DNA of 51,077 nt from the sequence record ON528718. One strand, written 5' to 3'. Source of the stretch: Shigella phage ESh4. Below the pieces are notes generated by a model. That model had not been told where the DNA came from. It saw only the letters and a list, made by a program, of their open reading frames with translations, and ran no database searches. The position numbers were made by a program, and so were the translations under genes. This document shows positions 6,767 through 27,657 of the stretch, piece after piece (the stretch's first letter is position 1; every line of letters begins with the position of its first letter).

Positions 6767-7240
6767 ATGAAAGAAAAGCGGATCGCGGTATCAACTGGCA
6801 AGATTGACAAACGCACAATCAATGGCAATAACGGAACTCGACGTGGTAAAGATAAGAAAAAGCGAAAGCGCCCTACAGGATACTATGTTTTAAAAGATGA
6901 AGTGCGCGCCGGGCTAAAAGCGCGACTTGATATCCTTATTGAGTATTACGGAAGTGTGTCAGCAATGGCAAAACGTCTTAACGTTAGCCAGCAAACTGTA
7001 AATCAGTGGCGTGTTCGCGGTATGATTTCAGCCGCTGGCGCTCAAAAGGTGCATAACGATTACAAAAAATATGGCTGCCAAGGCTATCGCGCGTCATTCT
7101 GCCGTCCAGATCTGCGATTTGATTCCAATGGTAAACCGCTCACAAAGAGATGTGATAAGCGTGAAATGTTGCGAGTGGTAAGAATGTCAGATTATGAACC
7201 TAGCGGATTCCTGTATAAACCTGAAAGCACTAATTGCTAA
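6767..7240 (+). CDS. HTH DNA-binding protein (Cro/YdaS-like motif)
   Basis: MAKRLNVSQQTVNQWRVRGMIS helix-turn-helix signature; basic N-terminus; GGAGAA RBS. Confidence 0.55.
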   Translation: MKEKRIAVSTGKIDKRTINGNNGTRRGKDKKKRKRPTGYYVLKDEVRAGLKARLDILIEYYGSVSAMAKRLNVSQQTVNQWRVRGMISAAGAQKVHNDYKKYGCQGYRASFCRPDLRFDSNGKPLTKRCDKREMLRVVRMSDYEPSGFLYKPESTNC

Positions 7241-7295
7241 AAACAATGCCTGGCATGATGTTATCATCTGTCAGGCTTTTTTGCTTGAGGTGTAT

Positions 7296-8228
7296 ATGAA
7301 TAACGAAAACTTTATGGTTTATCAAAAGGAAGATGTTCTCCCATATATGCAAGGATTGTGGCGTGAGGCGCTACAAAGTATTTGCGGTCTTCCAAATGAA
7401 GTTTTTAACGGCAAGCATCAATCTTGCCCCCACTGCGGCGGAAAGGATCGCTTCAGATGGACGGATAAACTTGGCGATAAAAAAGGCGATGGCGGTGCGA
7501 TCTGCAACGTGTGCGGTAATGATACCGGAATTGGTTGGATCATGAAGCTAACAGGAGAACCTTACAGCGAAGTGATCAATATTTTGGGCCGTTTTCTTGG
7601 AAAAGTTCCTCAGGACTATAGAATCAAGGCAAATAAGCGAGTATCTCGTGATTCTGGTTATTCGTTTGGGAAACAGGCAAGCCATGAATGCTGCGAGCGC
7701 GTTATGTCAAAAACGCTAAAATTTGATCGCACGCCGTTAAGCACCTATGAAGGGATATATCCTCCTGAAGATGGTCATTATGAATGCGGCGTTAAAGATG
7801 GTCGATACATTCACGCGTTACCATGTTACCTGGTGCATTCCGATGATATTGATGATGAAATGTGCAATGTGCTTTTCATTGATGAAGAAGGTAAACAGTC
7901 TTTTCTCGCAAAGGACTACACGCGCGGGTCTGTTGTGAGAACAGGAAGCACCGATAAGACGATCTATCTTTGCGTTGACTGGATTGATGCGCAACACATT
8001 CACCTTGCAACTGGTCAGGAGGTTTGGGCCTGTTTTGATGCAACTAACATTGAGATTGTGGCTTACAGGTATAAAGGCAACAGAAGAATGCGAGTTGTCT
8101 GTAAGAGCACAGATCGTGACGCGATCATTGCTGCTGAGGAAAGAGGACTTGAAATTATGATGCCGATTAATGATAATTACAGGCAAGGGATAGAGAGGAA
8201 TGTTTACAAACCTGAATCTCTTCTCTAA
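7296..8228 (+). CDS. DNA primase (zinc-ribbon, P4-type primase family)
   Basis: CPHCGGKDRFRWTD...CNVCG zinc-ribbon typical of phage primases; start at ATG 7296 with GAGGTG RBS (track start 7194 overlaps previous gene). Confidence 0.7.
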   Translation: MNNENFMVYQKEDVLPYMQGLWREALQSICGLPNEVFNGKHQSCPHCGGKDRFRWTDKLGDKKGDGGAICNVCGNDTGIGWIMKLTGEPYSEVINILGRFLGKVPQDYRIKANKRVSRDSGYSFGKQASHECCERVMSKTLKFDRTPLSTYEGIYPPEDGHYECGVKDGRYIHALPCYLVHSDDIDDEMCNVLFIDEEGKQSFLAKDYTRGSVVRTGSTDKTIYLCVDWIDAQHIHLATGQEVWACFDATNIEIVAYRYKGNRRMRVVCKSTDRDAIIAAEERGLEIMMPINDNYRQGIERNVYKPESLL

Positions 8229-20517: not shown

Positions 20518-21114
20518 TTAAGCCTTATCTTCTGCATAACTCCCAGCAGACCAGATAGCTCCGCCGACGGTCCTTTGACCGTATGGCAATGGTATTGGGT
20601 ATCCTGCCGCCGTTGTGTTAACTGCACCGCCAAAAGCGTAAGACGGCTTATTTTCTGCTGATTGGGATGATAACCGCGACCCGCCTTGCTGTGGTGAAAT
20701 CATCTGCATTACGCCACCCAGCACCATAGCGCCACCCATCATGAAAGCAGACGATGCAAAAGCGCCCATCAAAGCAAGTGAGGAGCCGCCAGTGAAAAAT
20801 GCAGTCGCCATAATAACCGCCCCAAGAACAACCTGAAACAACCCGCCAGACTTTGATCCTGTTGGGATGGGGATAATCCTCACTTCCTTTGCGCATTGCC
20901 ACGCTTTTTCATCGTGCTGCCCTACATTATTACCGTCAACAAATACAGCATAACGCATTCGCGATCCTACTTCGCTTTGCATGTAGTCCTTGAATCCTTC
21001 CACCTGCGAAGATAGCGCACGGATTGCTTCAGGGTATGAGTCAACAGCCAGCTTATGAAATACACCAAATCTTCGCCCTAAAGATCCAGATAATTTAATC
21101 GTTTTCAGTGTCAT
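20518..21114 (-). CDS. tail assembly protein I (lambda gpI-like)
   Basis: C-terminal Gly/Ala-rich hydrophobic region typical of gpI; start at ATG 21114 (track M is GTG at 21120). Confidence 0.6.
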   Translation of the reverse strand: MTLKTIKLSGSLGRRFGVFHKLAVDSYPEAIRALSSQVEGFKDYMQSEVGSRMRYAVFVDGNNVGQHDEKAWQCAKEVRIIPIPTGSKSGGLFQVVLGAVIMATAFFTGGSSLALMGAFASSAFMMGGAMVLGGVMQMISPQQGGSRLSSQSAENKPSYAFGGAVNTTAAGYPIPLPYGQRTVGGAIWSAGSYAEDKA

Positions 21115-21667
21115 AATCACCTCTACTTTTTCTTAACGCGACGATTGCAGGCGCTATGTACTTTAAAAATTCCTCGTGCGTGTAGTTATGCATTCGCGTT
21201 ACGTTGCAAAGCTGGCAGCAAGTGACGCAATTATCTTTAGTGTGTCCTTTTGTGTTATCTATCCTGTCGAAGCCGTTACATAGTGGATCTATGTATCCGC
21301 AGTATACGCAAGGCTTTACTAGTTCCTTAATGCAGTAATCAACATCCAAATCATTCTCAAGATTCTTTTTTTTATCTATTTTTTGGTAGCCTTTTAGTCT
21401 TAATATTTGCGGATTGTTGATTCTGTATCTTCTGCCGTATTCGCTTTTTTTAGCCTTTCCCTCTGGCGTACTGAGCAATCTTTTGTTGTATGCTCTCTGG
21501 CTTGCAAGATACTTGTCCTTGTTGTCCCCCTTCCATTTCTTTTGCCTGTCGTAGTCGCATGTTTTGCATTTATTCCTATGACCATCGGCGCAAGTCTTCG
21601 CCTTCGGAAACTCGCTTAATTTTTTAACCTCTCCGCAGACGTTGCATTTCTTCTCTACTGTCAACAT
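21095..21667 (-). CDS. HNH endonuclease inserted in tail module
   Basis: Cys pairs (CNVCG...CKTC) and HNH-type core (CVYCG...GFDRIDNTKGHTKDNCVTCCQLCN); overlaps both neighbours. Confidence 0.7.
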   Translation of the reverse strand: MLTVEKKCNVCGEVKKLSEFPKAKTCADGHRNKCKTCDYDRQKKWKGDNKDKYLASQRAYNKRLLSTPEGKAKKSEYGRRYRINNPQILRLKGYQKIDKKKNLENDLDVDYCIKELVKPCVYCGYIDPLCNGFDRIDNTKGHTKDNCVTCCQLCNVTRMHNYTHEEFLKYIAPAIVALRKSRGDYDTEND

Positions 21668-22379
21668 GTTTTAGATCCTTATGCCTAACAACTAGCGCGG
21701 TATGCTCTTGATACCAGCCAGAATATAAATCAATTCGAGACAGCTTTCCATAAGTATGGTGTAGCAGTTGGTTATCGCCCAAGTAAATCCCAGCATGATT
21801 GATAACATCGGATTGCAATATCATCATCACCATATCACCAGGTTTTGGCGGATCCCCTGTTTCAACAAAACCCTCTTTCAGATAATTTTCTTGGTAAAGA
21901 TTTTCACCGTGCTCAGGCTTCCACCATTCATATGGCTTCCTGAAATCATTCAGGATAACGCCATGTTGCTTGTGCCATGCCATAATAAGCCCCCAGCAAT
22001 CATAAGCACCAAGCGACCACGGGCGACAAATCAGGGGACGAGATTCAGGCTCTATGATTCTCATGTCACCTTCTGGCCATGACACAATAACCCATGAAAC
22101 ACCCATTTCATCACACATGCATGTGTCATGGGCGCTTGGAATTGTACTTGCCCCGTCTCCTGTGTGGCTATGCACAACAGCAATAAGCTCACCGCTTTCA
22201 CACGCCTCAACGTATTCAATTGCGTCCATCTCAAAATGATTTTCAGGATCATCATGCACGTTTGTTATTCGGTGATATTTTTGTACCCGCGACTTTTGAG
22301 TGATAACCCCGCACGCCTCGCGCGGGTATTCATCTTTTACGTGCTGCATTATTTCAAGTTTTATTTTTGCACTAATCAT
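21624..22379 (-). CDS. tail assembly protein K (JAB/MPN + NlpC/P60-like)
   Basis: JAMM-like HSHTGDGASTIPSAHD and Cys...His motifs (DCWGL...H.GIYLG); ATG 22379 with AAGGAGA RBS. Confidence 0.8.
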   Translation of the reverse strand: MISAKIKLEIMQHVKDEYPREACGVITQKSRVQKYHRITNVHDDPENHFEMDAIEYVEACESGELIAVVHSHTGDGASTIPSAHDTCMCDEMGVSWVIVSWPEGDMRIIEPESRPLICRPWSLGAYDCWGLIMAWHKQHGVILNDFRKPYEWWKPEHGENLYQENYLKEGFVETGDPPKPGDMVMMILQSDVINHAGIYLGDNQLLHHTYGKLSRIDLYSGWYQEHTALVVRHKDLKHVDSREEMQRLRRG

Positions 22380-23140
22380 CACTGATTTCTCCTTAACAGG
22401 CTTGCTACTGGCGCACCGCCAAAATCAAGCTGCTGATCTGCACCAAAACGAAGTTTGCACGCTGTTACAGTTCCGGCGCAAAAGTCTTGAGATGGATCGG
22501 TTACAGGATTGTTGTCTTTGTCAAACATTCGCGATCCATTGTATCCGCAACCCTTTCCGCTTCGATACCATCCACGCTGCGCCCAATAACAAACGCTTTG
22601 AGTTATTCGCGGAGGAATCATTATTCCATCCATATCATAAGGCGATGTCAGATCAAACTTTGCCATCATTCTATTGTAATGGCTTGGGCGCTCAATGTAA
22701 TAAACCAGCTTTCTTGAAGCGCCATCTTTAATGCTGCCATCTTTCCCCATTAATTCCGCTGGCGTGATCCAGATTGTAACCTTAGCTTGCATCATGCCGT
22801 TAAAGTTACGAATCATCGCACTCACCTGGCTATCAAGGTTTGATAGTATCAATTGTGGCTTATCAGCCTTTCCGTTGCTTGTGAAGTTGATTCCAGATAT
22901 TCCGAACGGGCGCGCGCCGTAAACCTCACCACGGAATGTAATCTCTTTTGGCGGAAGAACTCCAGTTTCTCGCGCCTGCAATAATTCTTCCGCAGTGTAT
23001 GAGATGTTCTCATTGTGTATGCGGTAAATGTTTGCGCCAAACTTTGTGCCGTCAATTTCAATTAGCGTGATAATATCGCCAGGGTAAAGGCTTTGCAGAC
23101 AATTTTCAAGATCCGCGCGACCTGTTGTTTCATTAGCCAT
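22379..23140 (-). CDS. minor tail protein L
   Basis: Position between M and K; ATG at 23140 with AAGGAGGTG RBS (track start 23173). Confidence 0.75.
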   Translation of the reverse strand: MANETTGRADLENCLQSLYPGDIITLIEIDGTKFGANIYRIHNENISYTAEELLQARETGVLPPKEITFRGEVYGARPFGISGINFTSNGKADKPQLILSNLDSQVSAMIRNFNGMMQAKVTIWITPAELMGKDGSIKDGASRKLVYYIERPSHYNRMMAKFDLTSPYDMDGIMIPPRITQSVCYWAQRGWYRSGKGCGYNGSRMFDKDNNPVTDPSQDFCAGTVTACKLRFGADQQLDFGGAPVASLLRRNQ

Positions 23141-23558: not shown

Positions 23559-26227
23559 CCCCGCTTAGACATAACAAATTCGTAAACTTCCCCACCCTGC
23601 GTACATGAACGCTTAATCATATCAGTGAAAATCATTTTTACGCCAGTCTCCAACCCTTTCGGATCGCTTCCGTTGTTAATATCAACGCTGATCCCGCCAA
23701 TATTAAGATTTGTTGCTCCAGATGAAACTCCGCCGCCAGTGTATGAAGTGCCGCCAACAACGCCTCCATTTGCATAACCGCGCATCATTTTGTAAAGATT
23801 TCCAACTCCGATCCGCTTCGTTGCCTCCTTCGTCATGACAAACTCGCCTTTATGGACAACACCTGCTGGCTCATACTTCCCACCATCGCCAGTGTATCCA
23901 CCAGTTGCAAATCCAACATTTTTAAGAAGGCTTCCAATCGTCCAAGTGTCACCGCCAGTCGCACCAGATATGGCATTAAAGATAACCATCTTTGTTATCA
24001 TCTGGATAATCATTTGGATGATTGACGTTGCGAAGCTCTTAAAGTTTGCCTTGCCTGTTGCAAGGAATGTAGCCATTTGGTTGGTTAGACCGTTGAGCGC
24101 CTCGCTTGCAATATCTTGCACGTTGCCGTACATATCCATTGCATCTTGTCCGTAAACCTCCCATGCGTTTTTTGCTCCTGCAATCCAGTTATTTCTTAGC
24201 TGATCCTCAGTGGCGTAATACTCCTTCAGCTTTGCTTCCATCTGCTGATAAATTTCATCGTCGATACTACCGCCGCCAGCAACATAATCAGTTCGCAACT
24301 TCTTCAACTCAAGCTCTCGCTGGATTTGCAGATCTGTAGCTCCAGACTGTCGCAAGTTCATAGCGTCAATAGCATCCGATGTTTGCTGAATGAACTTTAG
24401 CCCTTCCTGATATTGCTTGTTCTTTCTTTGTTGCAAAACAATCTGATCGCCTATCTCGGCCTTTTCTTTTGCCATAGCAAGAACTGTTTTTTGCTCGTTT
24501 AGTAACGCCTGTTCCGCTTTTGTTAGCTTACGTTTGCTTTGCGCTTCCTCTAGGATCTGGATCTGCTTTTCAATACTCCACAAAGATTGCCTCTGGCGTG
24601 AAATAACATCATTTACAGTTCGGTGCTCTTTCAGAGTTTCAAGTTGCGCCTTGAGAACATATAGCTCCTTATCAAGCTGCTCTGTTGGTGCTTTTACAAC
24701 TCCACCAACTTTTTCCTTTTGCTGCTGCGCCTTCTTCGCCTCTTCAAGCTCTTTTCGCCTGAACTCCACGTTCTCAGCCGCTCGTTTTTTCAAATCTTCG
24801 TCTGCTGTCCTTGCTACGTTCTTCTGATCCTCTATGGCTTTGTTTAAAGCCTCTTGCGCCGCTCGAACTCTGTTTAAGGAAAGGTTTTCTCTGTCGATGC
24901 GTGCTGCTCGTTCCGCCATATCCCTATTCGCATCTTTTACGATCTTTCCTATATCCTCATAGGTGTTCTTCGCAAATTGCAACATAGGATTTACATAACC
25001 AAGCTCTTTCCCCAACAGCCCGCCGGACGGTGAAGCATAATCACGTTTTGCTTTTAAGACCGCATACCATGAATCGCCAAGCTCAAGAACTTTGTTTTTG
25101 TGATCAGCAATTTCATTGTTAAGACTTACAAAACTTGATGCGTTTTTGTATTCGTTTACTTTTGCCTTTGCTTCGTCATAGGTAAATCCAACATCGACGA
25201 GTTTTTGTATAGCCTCGCTTGCTCCATCCTTAGTGCTTATATAAGCCTTTGCGATATTGTCGGCGCTCTCTCCTGTCTTGTCAGATAGCGCCTGAATTCC
25301 AGTTGCGATCCGCTCTGCAAACTCACCTGAAAGACCTGTTGCCTCCTGAACGGTTTTTGTGATCTCCTTCAGTTGTGCATTTGTTTTGTATGCATTATAT
25401 GCAGCATAACCAAGAGCACCAGTCAGCGCCGTCATTCCTACACTTAAAGGCGTGACAAATGTCATTAGCGCTTTAAACGTATTAGCAACACCGCCGAATG
25501 AGTCCTTGATTTGCCCCCCTTGCTGTATTGCGATCATCCATACTGGCATACCTGAAGCGAGAGAAGTAACAACGTCAGTGATTTGCATTGGCAATTGCGC
25601 CATTGCTTGCTTGTACTGCCCCATAGAAACGCCAAGTTTTGAGGCTTGTTTTTCCTGCTCCTTCATTTTTGCAATAAATGGCGCTGCCTCAGCACTAACT
25701 CCAAGTTGTGCGGCTCTCATTTCTACAAGCTCTGATTTTGTTTTTTCCGCTGCGTCAGCTTGCGCCTGCAATGCCGCAATAAACTTTCTTGCCTCAGCCT
25801 CTGCCCTTGCCTTGTTTTTTGCTTCCTCAAGCGCCGCGCGACCTTCTTCAGTTAGCGCCTTTTTAGTTGCGATCAGTTTGTTTTGCTGCGTCTCAAGAAT
25901 TGATCCTAACTCAAAGAATGTATCATCCGGCACAATTCCTTTTTTCCAAAGCGCATCAAGCTGTGTTGCTGCCTGGCGCAACTTATCCATTTTGCTTGCT
26001 GTCGGATCTATTGCCGACTGAATTGCTTTAAATTCCTGTTTCTGCTTCGCCAATTCCTCAGCCAATTGTTTGGCTCTTTGCCTTGCAACAACCTCTGAAT
26101 CAACAAAGCTCTCAACGCTTCCCTTTGCGTCGTCGTTTGCCTTTTTGAATTGCTGCAAAGATTTTACAGCATTGTTGAGTTGAGATACATCAACCCCAAG
26201 CGTCAATCCTGCGTATTGTTCTGACAT
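23555..26227 (-). CDS. tail tape measure protein
   Basis: 890 aa, long Ala/Lys/Glu/Gln coiled-coil region, C-terminal Gly-rich segment; GGAGGA RBS. Confidence 0.85.
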   Translation of the reverse strand: MSEQYAGLTLGVDVSQLNNAVKSLQQFKKANDDAKGSVESFVDSEVVARQRAKQLAEELAKQKQEFKAIQSAIDPTASKMDKLRQAATQLDALWKKGIVPDDTFFELGSILETQQNKLIATKKALTEEGRAALEEAKNKARAEAEARKFIAALQAQADAAEKTKSELVEMRAAQLGVSAEAAPFIAKMKEQEKQASKLGVSMGQYKQAMAQLPMQITDVVTSLASGMPVWMIAIQQGGQIKDSFGGVANTFKALMTFVTPLSVGMTALTGALGYAAYNAYKTNAQLKEITKTVQEATGLSGEFAERIATGIQALSDKTGESADNIAKAYISTKDGASEAIQKLVDVGFTYDEAKAKVNEYKNASSFVSLNNEIADHKNKVLELGDSWYAVLKAKRDYASPSGGLLGKELGYVNPMLQFAKNTYEDIGKIVKDANRDMAERAARIDRENLSLNRVRAAQEALNKAIEDQKNVARTADEDLKKRAAENVEFRRKELEEAKKAQQQKEKVGGVVKAPTEQLDKELYVLKAQLETLKEHRTVNDVISRQRQSLWSIEKQIQILEEAQSKRKLTKAEQALLNEQKTVLAMAKEKAEIGDQIVLQQRKNKQYQEGLKFIQQTSDAIDAMNLRQSGATDLQIQRELELKKLRTDYVAGGGSIDDEIYQQMEAKLKEYYATEDQLRNNWIAGAKNAWEVYGQDAMDMYGNVQDIASEALNGLTNQMATFLATGKANFKSFATSIIQMIIQMITKMVIFNAISGATGGDTWTIGSLLKNVGFATGGYTGDGGKYEPAGVVHKGEFVMTKEATKRIGVGNLYKMMRGYANGGVVGGTSYTGGGVSSGATNLNIGGISVDINNGSDPKGLETGVKMIFTDMIKRSCTQGGEVYEFVMSKRG

Positions 26228-26244
26228 TATTAATCCTCCAGGTA

Positions 26245-26268
26245 ATAAAAAAGCGCCCGTAGGCGCTT
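26245..26268 (-). terminator. hairpin-Trun attenuator upstream of tape measure gene
   Basis: GCGCC-TACG-GGCGC followed on minus strand by TTTTTTATT, then RBS. Confidence 0.45.
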
Positions 26269-26895
26269 ATTTTGAATGCATCATTTCAAGTGCTTTTTGC
26301 TCCATGATTCGCAAGTCGTTTAGCGCCATCTCGCGATCCTCAACCTTGTAAATCTCAAAAAGCATAGGCAAGACATTATAATCAAATCCGTAAGCGCCAC
26401 CGCCTGAACATCTCCATTGTGTTTGCATTGCGCAAAATATATCCCATGATTGCATCATGCTTTCATCAAATATAACCTCTGGCGGATCTTCTCCTTCATA
26501 GTCTGCCCTTGTAAGGCCAACAGCCTCAAGCTCTGCATCTGTCGGCGGTTTCTGATAAAACAGGTAAACCGCCCTTTTTAGTTTTTTACTCGCTGCCCCG
26601 CAAGCGCTTTCATGTATGCGCTAGTTAATCCGATTGCTGTCGCTGGGTAGTAATCAAGAAGCTGTTTAATATTTTCTTCGTTAAATTCATCATCAAGATT
26701 CCAACCGGAAGCAAGGAAGGTGATCATTTCAACATCGCTCATCGGGGTGTCGGACGTGTAGCGTTCGTGAATCTCACTTGTTTTTCGGTGGCGAACTGTG
26801 AAGATAATTGTTTGATCTTCTCCGTTAGGCATTGCAAATTTCACTGGTAATTTAAAGTCAGGAAGCGGCCCAAGAGTTAATTTCATTTTTGACAT
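26267..26895 (-). CDS. tail assembly chaperone GT fusion via -1 programmed frameshift
   Basis: Slippery heptamer A_AAA_AAC (plus coords 26581-26587) overlapping G stop; -1 frame is open and runs into track ORF 26267-26458. Confidence 0.55.
26578..26895 (-). CDS. tail assembly chaperone G (zero-frame product)
   Basis: 105-aa ORF between major tail and tape measure genes; AAGGAGAAAGAA RBS. Confidence 0.7.
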   Translation of the reverse strand: MSKMKLTLGPLPDFKLPVKFAMPNGEDQTIIFTVRHRKTSEIHERYTSDTPMSDVEMITFLASGWNLDDEFNEENIKQLLDYYPATAIGLTSAYMKALAGQRVKN

Positions 26896-26906
26896 TTCTT
26901 TCTCCT

Positions 26907-26952
26907 TGATAGCACTTTTTGTTAAAAGAATTGATTATGAATCGTGTATCAT
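26907..26952 (+). promoter_or_regulatory. conserved promoter-like unit in inverted (antisense) orientation
   Basis: Plus strand ATAGCACTTTTTGTTAAAAG + 22 bp + TATCAT, pointing rightward into the leftward tail operon. Confidence 0.4.
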
Positions 26953-26965
26953 GATTGTACAGTAA

Positions 26966-26989
26966 CAAAAAAAGGGGCGCAACGCCCCT
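26966..26989 (-). terminator. intrinsic terminator after major tail protein gene
   Basis: GGGGCG-CAAC-GCCCC followed on minus strand by TTTTTTT. Confidence 0.7.
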
Positions 26990-26994
26990 TGTGA

Positions 26995-27657
26995 TTATGC
27001 TACTTGAGAAGGTAGGAAGGTGAATCGACCTTTCAGGGATACAGACAGGGAAACAGTTTCCATTTCGTTAACGGTCGTTTGTGGGATCTCGTTAAACGAA
27101 AGGACACCAGCCCAGCAACGCATTTCTTTTGCTTTTGGTACATACATGCGAAGCGCCGTTACAGCGCCTGACTCATCTGCTGAACGCAATAGCGGATAGA
27201 TCGCGTTATCGTATTCGTGCGCAAAAGTGTAGGTAAGAGAAACGGCGCTCTTATAGGTAGGTAACTGCTGTTCCTGGTCGTCTGCCAAACACTGATAAGT
27301 ATAGTATTGCTGTTCGCCGCCGTCCTGCGACAAATCCTGAACGCAAGGGATCTCAGTCCATGCATCAATCTTGGCAAAAGATGCAGTGCCGCCAGTCGGG
27401 AACACGTTCTGATCGGTAGTATCAACACCCTCAAGAGTCACGCTTGTTTCTTCACCGTCAGCCTTTACACGCATAACACGATCAATCAGCTTGCCCCAGG
27501 AGGACGCAGTGATGATTACATAATCGCCTTTCTTGTACGCAGTGCCACCAGATGCAACAGTGAAAACGGGATCTTTAGCGTTTGACACTGCGGTTGCTTG
27601 GATTTCGCTGCCGCGATTGCTCTCAACGAAAATTTGCGATCCATTTGGTAAATGCAT
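26995..27657 (-). CDS. major tail protein (gpV-like)
   Basis: 220 aa ORF upstream of G/GT with its own terminator; AAGGAG RBS. Confidence 0.7.
   Translation of the reverse strand: MHLPNGSQIFVESNRGSEIQATAVSNAKDPVFTVASGGTAYKKGDYVIITASSWGKLIDRVMRVKADGEETSVTLEGVDTTDQNVFPTGGTASFAKIDAWTEIPCVQDLSQDGGEQQYYTYQCLADDQEQQLPTYKSAVSLTYTFAHEYDNAIYPLLRSADESGAVTALRMYVPKAKEMRCWAGVLSFNEIPQTTVNEMETVSLSVSLKGRFTFLPSQVA

Follow-up and report, generated by a model that had tools for sequence, protein, structure and literature searches.

Sequence analysis of a predicted G/GT-type programmed -1 frameshift in the tail genes of the T1-like Shigella phage ESh4

Introduction

Between its major tail protein and tape measure protein genes, Shigella phage ESh4 (sequence record ON528718; the whole stretch of 51,077 nucleotides that was analysed is referred to as the window) carries two overlapping reading frames, designated G and T, the second of which lies in the -1 frame relative to the first. 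This arrangement raises the question of how T is translated: as a protein in its own right, or as the C-terminal part of a GT fusion made by those ribosomes which change frame at the end of G. The G/GT frameshift itself is textbook knowledge that goes back to 1993 and 2004, and the initial annotation of the window had assigned the locus to this type.

Results

The window derives from a T1-like siphophage (Drexlerviridae, Hanrivervirus) to which phages herni and pSf-1 are 97-98% identical. The tail genes were found in the order major tail protein, G, T and tape measure, followed by gpM-, gpL-, gpK- and gpI-like genes (Table 1). Terminators are annotated in T1 and G29-2 at the place orthologous to the hairpin between the major tail gene and G, and in T1, G29-2 and Stevie at the place orthologous to the hairpin at the end of T. 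An Rfam scan of positions 26150..27050 returned only sub-threshold chance matches, which fell on these terminator hairpins.

Table 1. Features of the G-T locus and its surroundings, in window coordinates
Feature	Position	Strand	Basis or remark
Major tail (tube) protein gene	26995..27657	(-)	PF08813 Phage_tail_3, E = 2.6e-64; PHROG 584 'major tail protein'; directly upstream of G
Terminator-like hairpin and T-run between the major tail gene and G	26972..26990	(-)	Consensus scan
Shine-Dalgarno sequence AAGGAG	26902..26907	(-)	6 nt upstream of the G start codon; read from sequence
Gene G, tail assembly (tape measure) chaperone, 105 aa, 11.97 kDa	26578..26895	(-)	Standard 0-frame product; ATG 26895, TAA 26580..26578
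-1-frame TAG, upstream limit of the 43-nt overlap permitting a shift into the T frame	26621..26623	(-)	13 codons upstream of CTA
Slippery heptamer A_AAA_AAC	26581..26587	(-)	Last A of GTA, Lys codon AAA and Asn codon AAC; X_XXY_YYZ register of G
0-frame stop TAA directly 3' of the heptamer, possible 'shifty stop' stimulator	26578..26580	(-)	First two bases are bases 2-3 of the T codon CTA (Leu)
Predicted hairpin GGCGGUUU-ACCUGUUUUAUCAG-AAACCGCC, 8 + 3 bp, candidate 3' stimulator	26544..26573	(-)	Starts 7 nt after the heptamer
T segment, 104 codons and stop in the -1 frame, first codon CTA	26267..26581	(-)	C26581 read twice
63-codon ATG ORF, a separate gene in the annotation of close relatives	26267..26458	(-)	Here the C-terminal part of T
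Terminator-like hairpin and T-run overlapping the T stop codon, before the tape measure gene	26251..26268	(-)	Consensus scan
Tape measure protein gene, 890 aa	23555..26227	(-)	TMP_2 E = 3e-35 and Tape_meas_lam_C E = 6.5e-22 (Pfam); directly downstream of T

The G protein matched the PF08748 family (Phage_TAC_4) over its full length (residues 1-105 against profile positions 1-124 of 124; E = 1.1e-31, 110.1 bits against a cut-off of 21.1 bits), and an AF2 model of G alone had a pLDDT of 81. Pell and colleagues are said to have described, in 2013, a 'spiral' fold for the tail assembly chaperone. The T part matched PF08809 (DUF1799), with residues 127-206 of the predicted GT protein corresponding to profile positions 2-80 of 80 (46.8-49.1 bits; cut-off 26 bits), while PHROG 17368 covers both G and T. 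A sequence search of the PDB with a GT profile gave nothing significant.

The initial annotation had stated that the T sequence resembles lambda gpT, a claim which was not borne out. BLASTP comparison with lambda gave E = 0.5 for the T parts and E = 2 for the G parts, i.e. no detectable similarity, and the proteins belong to different Pfam families: lambda GT matched PF06894 (Phage_TAC_2) and PF06223 (Phage_tail_T), whereas the window protein matched PF08748 and PF08809 and hit neither of the two lambda families even at E <= 10. What the two loci share is a pair of overlapping ORFs between the major tail and tape measure genes, with the downstream ORF in the -1 frame and lacking its own start, an X_XXY_YYZ heptamer near the end of G, and short and long chaperones with a common N-terminal part. 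As judged from the sequences, the likeness to lambda is positional and functional and is not one of detectable homology.

The last codons of G are GCG GGG CAG CGA GTA AAA AAC TAA. The coordinates and translations that had been given for this ORF, with its heptamer at the stop codon, were confirmed, as was the claim that the -1 frame continues open into the 63-codon ORF: it runs without a stop from 26620 down to the TAA at 26269..26267, with (T-G) mod 3 = 2, and its translation (...SKK LKRAVYLFYQKPPTDAELEAVGLTRADYEGEDPPEVIFDES MMQSWDIF...) contains the ORF at 26458..26267. The number of heptamers could not be used as evidence, since AAAAAAC is not over-represented in the window (26 occurrences against 22.3 +/- 4.9 expected, which is chance level). 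A frameshift-like layout is likewise weak evidence when taken alone, because a loose version of it, namely an in-frame heptamer within the overlap and a -1 extension of at least 50 codons, was found by chance in 8 of the 286 ORFs of at least 60 codons. The one such match that was inspected, at 7333..7545 with A_AAA_AAG at about position 7479, was rejected as a shadow ORF within the 344-amino-acid gene at 7194..8228. The site at the end of G is set apart from chance occurrences by the position of its heptamer, which adjoins the stop codon in the interval from the major tail gene to the tape measure gene, and by its retention in relatives.

On this sequence evidence, G and T are very probably joined by a programmed -1 ribosomal frameshift at A_AAA_AAC, which would yield a GT protein of 209 amino acids and 24.1 kDa (predicted from 26895..26581 joined to 26581..26267). 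In the proposed mechanism most ribosomes would stop at TAA and release the 105-residue G, while a minority would slip back by one nucleotide, with tRNA-Lys moving from AAA to AAA and tRNA-Asn from AAC to AAA, and would go on to read CTA AAA AGG... for 104 further codons of the -1 frame. The fusion product would read ...GQRVKN-LKRAVY... across the junction, and its C-terminal part would be the DUF1799 domain; the junction proposed in the initial annotation is identical to that predicted by tandem slippage. We infer that the shift is ribosomal and of low efficiency, in which case its efficiency would set a fixed and low ratio of GT to G. By analogy with lambda, the G part would bind the tape measure protein and the T part would recruit the major tail protein; G and GT would presumably both be required for tail assembly and be absent from virions.

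The searchable literature yielded no experimental demonstration of GT for any T1-like phage. Mass spectrometry of a tryptic digest would not work for the junction, as the tryptic junction peptide is NLK only; digestion with Asp-N would give DYYPATAIGLTSAYMKALAGQRVKNLKRAVYLFYQKPPT. A tryptic peptide from the start-less region, AVYLFYQKPPTDAELEAVGLTR, is encoded upstream of the only ATG of T.

Were G and T two independent genes, G would end normally and a protein of 63 amino acids (7.5 kDa) would initiate at ATG 26458 without recoding. Separate coding sequences are indeed annotated in Henu8, JakobBernoulli, Poky and the T1 RefSeq record, and an equivalent of Met 26458 is present in many T1-like phages. 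This ATG, however, is not preceded by a Shine-Dalgarno sequence (gatgaaagcATG), in contrast to the AAGGAG of G, and the 54 T-frame codons between 26620 and Met 26458 contain no ATG, GTG or TTG. The first 20 residues of the DUF1799 match precede this Met, which is itself missing in Webervirus, Dhillonvirus, Ralstonia-phage and other lineages, and the starts annotated in relatives are inconsistent: the T ORFs called in them are between 63 and 136 amino acids long, compared with a uniform 103-105 for the G homologues (n = 69).

The 41 T codons upstream of this Met, which have no start codon of their own, vary among relatives in the way of coding sequence in the T frame and are kept as protein. 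Their differences from relatives are mostly at the third codon position (for example, 22 of 31 against 2 of 31 at the second position); there are no stops in the T frame compared with one to six in the other frames, and amino acid identity is 0.60-0.95 in the T frame compared with 0.15-0.65 in the others. Independent initiation of T at ATG 26458 is thus a barely plausible account of the locus.

Conservation of the junction was assessed among relatives. A scan of viral contigs with a single protein recovered 10 loci and an alignment-based scan recovered 80; in all, 103 distinct junctions were compared, drawn from isolates of independent origin and from metagenomes, with protein identity extending to below 30%. 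T lay in the -1 frame relative to G in 101 of the 103, the exceptions being two records with a run of five A's (L008 and L023). When the fusion protein was used as a tblastn query, 58 of the 60 matches listed (of 1147 phage records) were split into two pieces. Homopolymers are error-prone, and two public records show a one-base difference at this point, so it could be argued that G and T were once a single in-frame gene, broken by a sequencing error or a recent indel in the A-run. The recurrence of the -1 arrangement in nearly all junctions and the lack of any in-frame G-T fusion among the 69 G homologues speak against such an artefact or pseudogene, the probability of which we regard as negligible.

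A canonical heptamer in the register of G was found in 82 of the 103 junctions (79 A_AAA_AAC, 1 A_AAA_AAT and 2 G_GGA_AAC). The codon preceding AAA was GTA, GCA, ACA, GAA or CAA, which specify five amino acids but always have A as the third base, and that preceding GGA was CGG or AAG, always with G as the third base. Among 41 representatives sharing less than 90% nucleotide identity, the heptamer positions, including the wobble A, were at least 90% conserved while neighbouring wobble positions varied freely. In AV129 (L012) and L110 a -1-frame TGA stands directly before the heptamer, shrinking the overlap of the two frames to 10 nt, and the shift is therefore pinned to the heptamer.

These data also bear on transcriptional slippage, in which RNA polymerase would add one A within the run of six and a subset of the mRNA would encode GT (...VKK-LKR...). 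An additional A would give the T frame, the run extends to seven A's in lineages with GAA AAA AAC, and the records L008 and L023, which differ by one A, indicate that it is indel-prone at least in sequencing. Efficient slippage by bacterial RNA polymerase is, however, documented at runs of about nine A or T (PMC5009743), for which six is short, and the conserved feature is not the length of the run but a codon-phased X_XXY_YYZ with covarying NNA-AAA and NNG-GGA, a signature of tRNA re-pairing. Moreover, the two-frame layout is kept at the G_GGA_AAC sites of Ralstonia phages and phiPMW and at A_AAA_GTY sites, where the runs are only three to four. A long homopolymer is missing from these G_GGA_AAC and A_AAA_G variants, which favours a ribosomal shift, and slippage of the polymerase appears highly unlikely.

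A stop codon (TAA or TGA) directly adjoined the heptamer in every one of the 82 canonical junctions. Non-canonical motifs (A_AAA_GTY, A_AAG_GTC and A_AAG_AGT) occurred in about 19% of junctions, so that strict tandem slippage is not universal in the family; in the 19 junctions of the A_AAA_G/A_AAG_G type one codon separates the motif from the stop. The review PMC5009743 reports that A_AAA_AAC is far less shift-prone than A_AAA_AAG in E. coli, and for this reason the efficiency at the window site may be very low unless stimulators are present. Stimulation by the adjoining stop, by the hairpin 7 nt downstream, or by both is possible.

The position of the stop suggests a variant of the ribosomal mechanism, the 'shifty stop', in which slippage would occur after translocation with TAA in an empty A site. 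The P-site peptidyl-tRNA-Asn would re-pair from AAC to AAA during slow binding of the release factor, while tRNA-Lys occupies the E site, and competition from RF1/RF2 rather than tandem slippage in the P and A sites would set the efficiency. Such a mechanism is consistent with the constant stop adjacency and with the poor performance of A_AAA_AAC as a P/A-site shifter in E. coli (PMC5009743); it would give the same junction peptide as tandem slippage (VKN-LKR), and that review cites Weiss et al. 1987 for the 'shifty stop' as an established stimulator. On the other hand, Leu106, the first T-frame residue, is invariant in alignment A1 (CTA or CTG), and this Leu codon, which overlaps the stop, could by itself explain the adjacency; from the sequences, stop adjacency cannot be separated from selection on this codon. 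The Webervirus-type sequence A_AAA_GTT TAA also has its slippery Lys codon one codon away from the stop. We consider the 'shifty stop' rather unlikely, though a serious possibility, as the form that the ribosomal shift takes here.

The downstream hairpin was predicted to fold with a dG of -15.2 kcal/mol (z = -4.2 on a 38-nt segment and -1.7 on 71 nt). It was found in about half of the T1-like representatives and was absent from the Rtp-like, C119-like and Webervirus lineages; in the close relatives L032 and L038 synonymous changes break its stem. Over 25 representatives 71.7% of cells were paired, with few compensatory changes and weak covariation. A family-wide conserved 3' hairpin was rejected, as the structure is absent or broken in several lineages, and it was retained as a lineage-restricted candidate. 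Unrelated hairpins were observed at the same offset from the heptamer in AV129 and Silvanus. A G-rich sequence, GCGGGGCAG, lies 8-14 nt upstream of the heptamer; its nucleotides are not kept in relatives, so that no conserved Shine-Dalgarno-like stimulator was seen, and its G-richness is due to codons which specify a conserved Ala-Gly-Gln.

Discussion

The assignment of the locus to the G/GT type, as originally proposed, is supported at the sequence level by gene order, protein domains, the missing start codon, the conserved register and the coding-type evolution of T. With respect to the class defined by Xu, Hendrix & Duda 2004 (G/GT of long-tailed phages), the gene position, a start-less -1 ORF and a conserved in-register heptamer were all found. 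The orthologous site is already known, having been annotated or published for Stevie, U136B and Silvanus since 2015. Citrobacter phage Stevie (KM236241, Tlsvirus; PMC4319613) has orthologous genes with the same Pfam families, belongs to the same subfamily (Tempevirinae) and has a G that also ends GTA AAA AAC TAA, with a joined CDS of 210 amino acids; the tape measure chaperone frameshift is reported for this phage (PMC4319613) and for the E. coli phage U136B (PMC8104045). In Stenotrophomonas phage Silvanus (MZ326867) the joined tape measure chaperone CDS has GTA AAA AAC TGA, and the record cites the Center for Phage Technology's own annotation of the frameshift in T1. Only the host, the phage species and a protein divergence of 20-45% distinguish the window from these annotated cases, and the window site is ordinary because the same site is already annotated in such closely related phages.

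Among better characterised systems, the lambda heptamer (G_GGA_AAG) is located several codons before the G stop, whereas A_AAA_AAC touches the stop in the window. Lambda G/GT has been measured, with a 30:1 ratio and protein contacts attributed to Levin, Hendrix & Casjens 1993 and Xu, Hendrix & Duda 2004, 2013 and 2014 in the review PMC5009743, while G/GT of the window is predicted from its sequence. In E. coli dnaX (A_AAA_AAG; PMC5009743) there is likewise a Lys-codon heptamer with a stem-loop a few nucleotides downstream; its second codon, however, is AAG, which is highly shifty (about 50% efficiency), against AAC in the window, and dnaX has an upstream Shine-Dalgarno-like element, while the window has no conserved one and its hairpin is not conserved family-wide. 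The same heptamer with the same stop adjacency occurs in gp12/gp13 of the Acinetobacter siphophage vB_AbaS_Loki (PMC5313236), a member of another phage lineage, where the frameshift is likewise only predicted.

While nothing here is biologically new in kind, the value of the finding is in annotation. In the nearest relatives of the window phage (herni, pSf-1, G29-2, Henu8 and JakobBernoulli; Hanrivervirus) the shift is unannotated, and Henu8, JakobBernoulli, G29-2, Poky and the T1 RefSeq record, among others, show beside G either a 'hypothetical protein' that is truncated or a wrongly labelled 'tail length tape measure protein'. The records of the relatives should instead carry the joined 209-residue GT, and a correct GT model matters for engineering or reconstituting T1-like tails.

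It is also conceivable, though improbable, that in some lineages a 'shifty stop' is adjusted by hairpins which arose independently and share a constant spacing of 7 nt. If so, the GT:G ratio and tail assembly would follow the host's growth state or its capacity for termination, unlike the constant ratio assumed for lambda. With a programmed ribosomal shift as the preferred reading, this family of E. coli phages, with over 1000 phage records, uses A_AAA_AAC, which shifts poorly in E. coli, and has a stop codon directly against the heptamer wherever the latter is canonical; it could be a natural test system for the stimulation of -1 frameshifting by stop codons.

Genomic context of the G-T unit

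The window was assigned to a T1-like siphophage (Drexlerviridae, Tempevirinae, Hanrivervirus) with 97-98% nucleotide identity to Escherichia phages herni, G29-2 and aaroes and to Shigella phage pSf-1; all genes in this part of it are encoded on the minus strand. G is a tail assembly chaperone that matches Phage_TAC_4 (PF08748) over its full length (E = 1e-31), and DUF1799 (PF08809) was detected in the -1 extension, T, at 47-49 bits against a cut-off of 26 bits. The major tail protein gene (PF08813) lies upstream of G, and T is followed by the tape measure gene (TMP_2 and Tape_meas_lam_C) and then by gpM-, gpL-, gpK-, gpI- and gpJ-like genes. The first half of a single PHROG profile (17368, 213 positions) matches G and the second half T; the profile therefore covers both parts.

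The G-T unit is bracketed by two terminator-like hairpins, orthologues of which are annotated in T1, G29-2 and Stevie, and partial read-through of these terminators may determine how much major tail protein, chaperone and tape measure are made relative to one another. An ATG-initiated ORF of 190 codons with no Pfam match (21095-21667, minus strand), a possible extra gene, was also observed between the gpK-like (21624..22382; JAB and NlpC/P60) and gpI-like (20518..21120) genes, overlapping both; in T1 the two genes are adjacent.

Features of the G-T region of the window
Feature	Coordinates	Strand	Remarks
Terminator-like hairpin and T-run	26972-26990	-	between major tail gene and G
SD of G	26907..26902	-	AAGGAG
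G ORF	26895..26578	-	105 codons; 3' end ...GCG GGG CAG CGA GTA AAA AAC TAA
-1-frame TAG	26623..26621	-	upstream limit of open frame; -1 frame open from 26620
Heptamer AAAAAAC	26587..26581	-	phased A_AAA_AAC in G frame; G stop codon directly 3'
-1-frame stop TAA	26269..26267	-	end of T
Terminator-like hairpin and T-run	26251-26268	-	overlaps T stop, just ahead of tape measure gene

The slippery site and its chance expectation

The initial annotation had proposed a programmed -1 frameshift at this site, and its coordinates, heptamer, translation and frame relation all proved right on re-reading of the sequence, the -1 frame reading ...SKK-LKRAVYLFYQKPPTDAELEAVGLTRADYEGEDPPEVIFDES-MMQSWDIF... up to its TAA. 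The heptamer by itself is not above chance (26 copies of AAAAAAC in the window compared to 22.3 +/- 4.9 in shuffles), and among the 286 ORFs with 60 or more codons, 8 have a loose frameshift-like layout, defined as an in-frame X_XXY_YYZ within the overlap and a -1 extension of at least 50 codons. One such case was inspected (7333-7545, plus strand) and was rejected as a false positive, being a 70-aa shadow ORF inside a 344-aa gene (7194..8228); it has an in-register A_AAA_AAG, the most shift-prone heptamer in E. coli, at ~7479-7485 and a -1 extension of 226 codons. The significance of the site at the end of G comes from its context and from comparison with relatives.

Conservation of the slippery site

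A tblastn search with the conceptual GT fusion gave matches in 1147 phage records, with identity down to <30%, and a two-piece match was seen in 58 of the 60 rows listed. From 110 collected loci, 103 distinct junctions were obtained; recurrence of the arrangement in 101 of these 103 independent junctions excludes a sequencing error or pseudogene as its source. A_AAA_AAC was present in 79 junctions (the stop being TAA in 48 and TGA in 31), A_AAA_AAT in one and G_GGA_AAC in two, and the G-frame stop abuts the heptamer in all 82. The codon 5' of AAA is GTA, GCA, ACA, GAA or CAA (encoding five different amino acids, always with a final A) and that 5' of GGA is CGG or AAG (always with a final G), which is the covariation that a requirement for -1-frame re-pairing of both tRNAs would predict. 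Among 41 representatives (<90% nucleotide identity) each heptamer position was at least 90% conserved, while adjoining wobble positions vary freely. Selection acts on the slippery site at the nucleotide level. In Dhillonvirus AV129 and one further locus (L110) a -1-frame TGA lies directly 5' of the heptamer, leaving an overlap of 10 nt, and a shift is therefore possible only on the heptamer.

The exceptions were the Weberviruses (L011, L061-L078; Klebsiella phages), mostly with GCA AAA GTY TAA (A_AAA_G; junction at ~715-727 in L011), the C119-like phages with GCA AAG GTC TAA (A_AAG_GTC), and K34PH164 with CAA AAG AGT TAA. All have kept an A_AAA or A_AAG tetramer in the corresponding position, and a Webervirus-like contig (L066) has the canonical A_AAA_AAC; in the Webervirus and C119-like lineages this would point to slippage of a single tRNA-Lys or to evolutionary change of the slippery motif. 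The A6 run would also allow the T frame to be reached by transcriptional slippage, but this is unlikely because efficient bacterial slippage requires runs of ~9 (PMC5009743), orthologous G_GGA_AAC or A4 sites have no such run, and the conserved feature is the codon-phased pattern.

Five A's rather than six (GTAAAAACTAA) were found in Salmonella virus STSR3 (MT500539, ~700-715) and Shigella phage 2019SD1 (IMGVR_UViG_2974632794, ~1205-1217), which shifts T to +1 with respect to G; within T, 2019SD1 contains a further frame break. Both records are most likely homopolymer sequencing errors and not biology.

T has no start of its own

No ATG, GTG or TTG occurs in the T frame from 26620 to Met 26458. 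Independent initiation at this Met, by which T would be a separate protein, is contradicted by the conservation of the start-less region, by the DUF1799 match, which begins 20 residues upstream of it, and by the lack of an SD ahead of it (gatgaaagcATG); T cannot be produced on its own. Compared to nine relatives (59-85% nucleotide identity), the 41 start-less codons showed coding-type evolution in the T frame only: differences were mostly at third positions (e.g. 7 at first, 2 at second and 22 at third positions), stops numbered zero in the T frame and 1-6 in the other frames, and amino acid identity was 0.60-0.95 compared to 0.15-0.65. The GT alignment is seamless over the junction, with invariant R102 (G) and L106 (first T codon). 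Gene-caller lengths are uniform for G homologues (103-105 aa), whereas T fragments (63-136 aa) have inconsistent starts. In Escherichia phage G29-2 (NC_049822) a single AGG to ATG change (Arg to Met, 2026-2028) two codons past the shift site creates a T-frame ATG, from which the record begins a distinct 102-aa 'gene', a case of annotators picking any start codon at hand.

Proposed mechanism and candidate stimulators

Programmed -1 ribosomal frameshifting is the reading best supported by the sequence. tRNA-Lys (AAA to AAA) and tRNA-Asn (AAC to AAA) would slip one base back, with CTA as the next codon, giving a GT of 209 aa and 24.1 kDa (...GQRVKN-LKRAVY...) alongside the 12.0-kDa G. No experiment on GT in any T1-like phage was found in the searchable literature; GT production and the GT:G ratio are what we infer. 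In E. coli A_AAA_AAC is much less shift-prone than A_AAA_AAG, and lambda needs a low GT:G ratio, given as 30:1 (review PMC5009743). The low shiftiness of A_AAA_AAC would fit a similarly low ratio here, and suggests that stimulators are needed.

One candidate is the abutting stop codon ('shifty stop'), with which the stop adjacency in all canonical-heptamer junctions would be consistent, although it cannot be told apart from the effect of selection on the overlapping invariant Leu codon. The other candidate, a hairpin at 26573..26544, starts 7 nt past the heptamer (GGCGGUUU/AAACCGCC plus 3 inner pairs; -15.2 kcal/mol; z-score -4.2 for a 38-nt segment and -1.7 for 71 nt). It occurs in Hanrivervirus, Tlsvirus, Warwickvirus and T1, is absent in the Rtp-like, C119-like and Webervirus lineages, and is broken by synonymous changes in two close relatives (L032 and L038); over 25 representatives only 71.7% of cells pair, with few compensatory changes. 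Its role as a stimulator is plausible but unproven. Strong hairpins of unrelated sequence at exactly this 7-nt offset were observed in two distant lineages, in Stenotrophomonas phage Silvanus (715-744, -23 kcal/mol, z = -4.2) and in Escherichia phage AV129 (768-797, -17 kcal/mol, z = -2.3); in all three phages the arms are T-frame Ala/Arg and Pro-Pro codons (GGCGG...CCGCC).

Relation to known systems and existing annotation

The site is like lambda G/GT in function and position, but the proteins have no detectable sequence relationship (BLASTP E = 2 for G and 0.5 for T), and lambda GT matches PF06894 and PF06223 and none of the families of the window protein. The frameshift interpretation in the initial annotation is supported, except for its statement that T resembles the lambda gpT extension, which is wrong as a sequence claim.

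For this phage family the G/GT frameshift site has been recognised before. In Citrobacter phage Stevie (Tlsvirus), a member of the same subfamily, the G that ends GTA AAA AAC TAA is part of a joined CDS named 'tape measure chaperone', and the Stevie paper names the 'conserved translational frameshift' (PMC4319613); the frameshift is annotated likewise in phage U136B (PMC8104045), and the record for Silvanus refers to a 'CPT-T1 tape measure chaperone frameshift product'. The GT join is not annotated in the close relatives of the window that were inspected. Although they are chaperones, with lengths of 105 and about 100 aa, G and T orthologues are widely named 'tail length tape measure protein' (PHROGs 569, 680 and 17368; RefSeq re-annotations), a misnomer that appears to have spread automatically. 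The value of the finding lies chiefly in annotation correction, together with a modest natural case of a stop-adjacent heptamer that is weak in E. coli.
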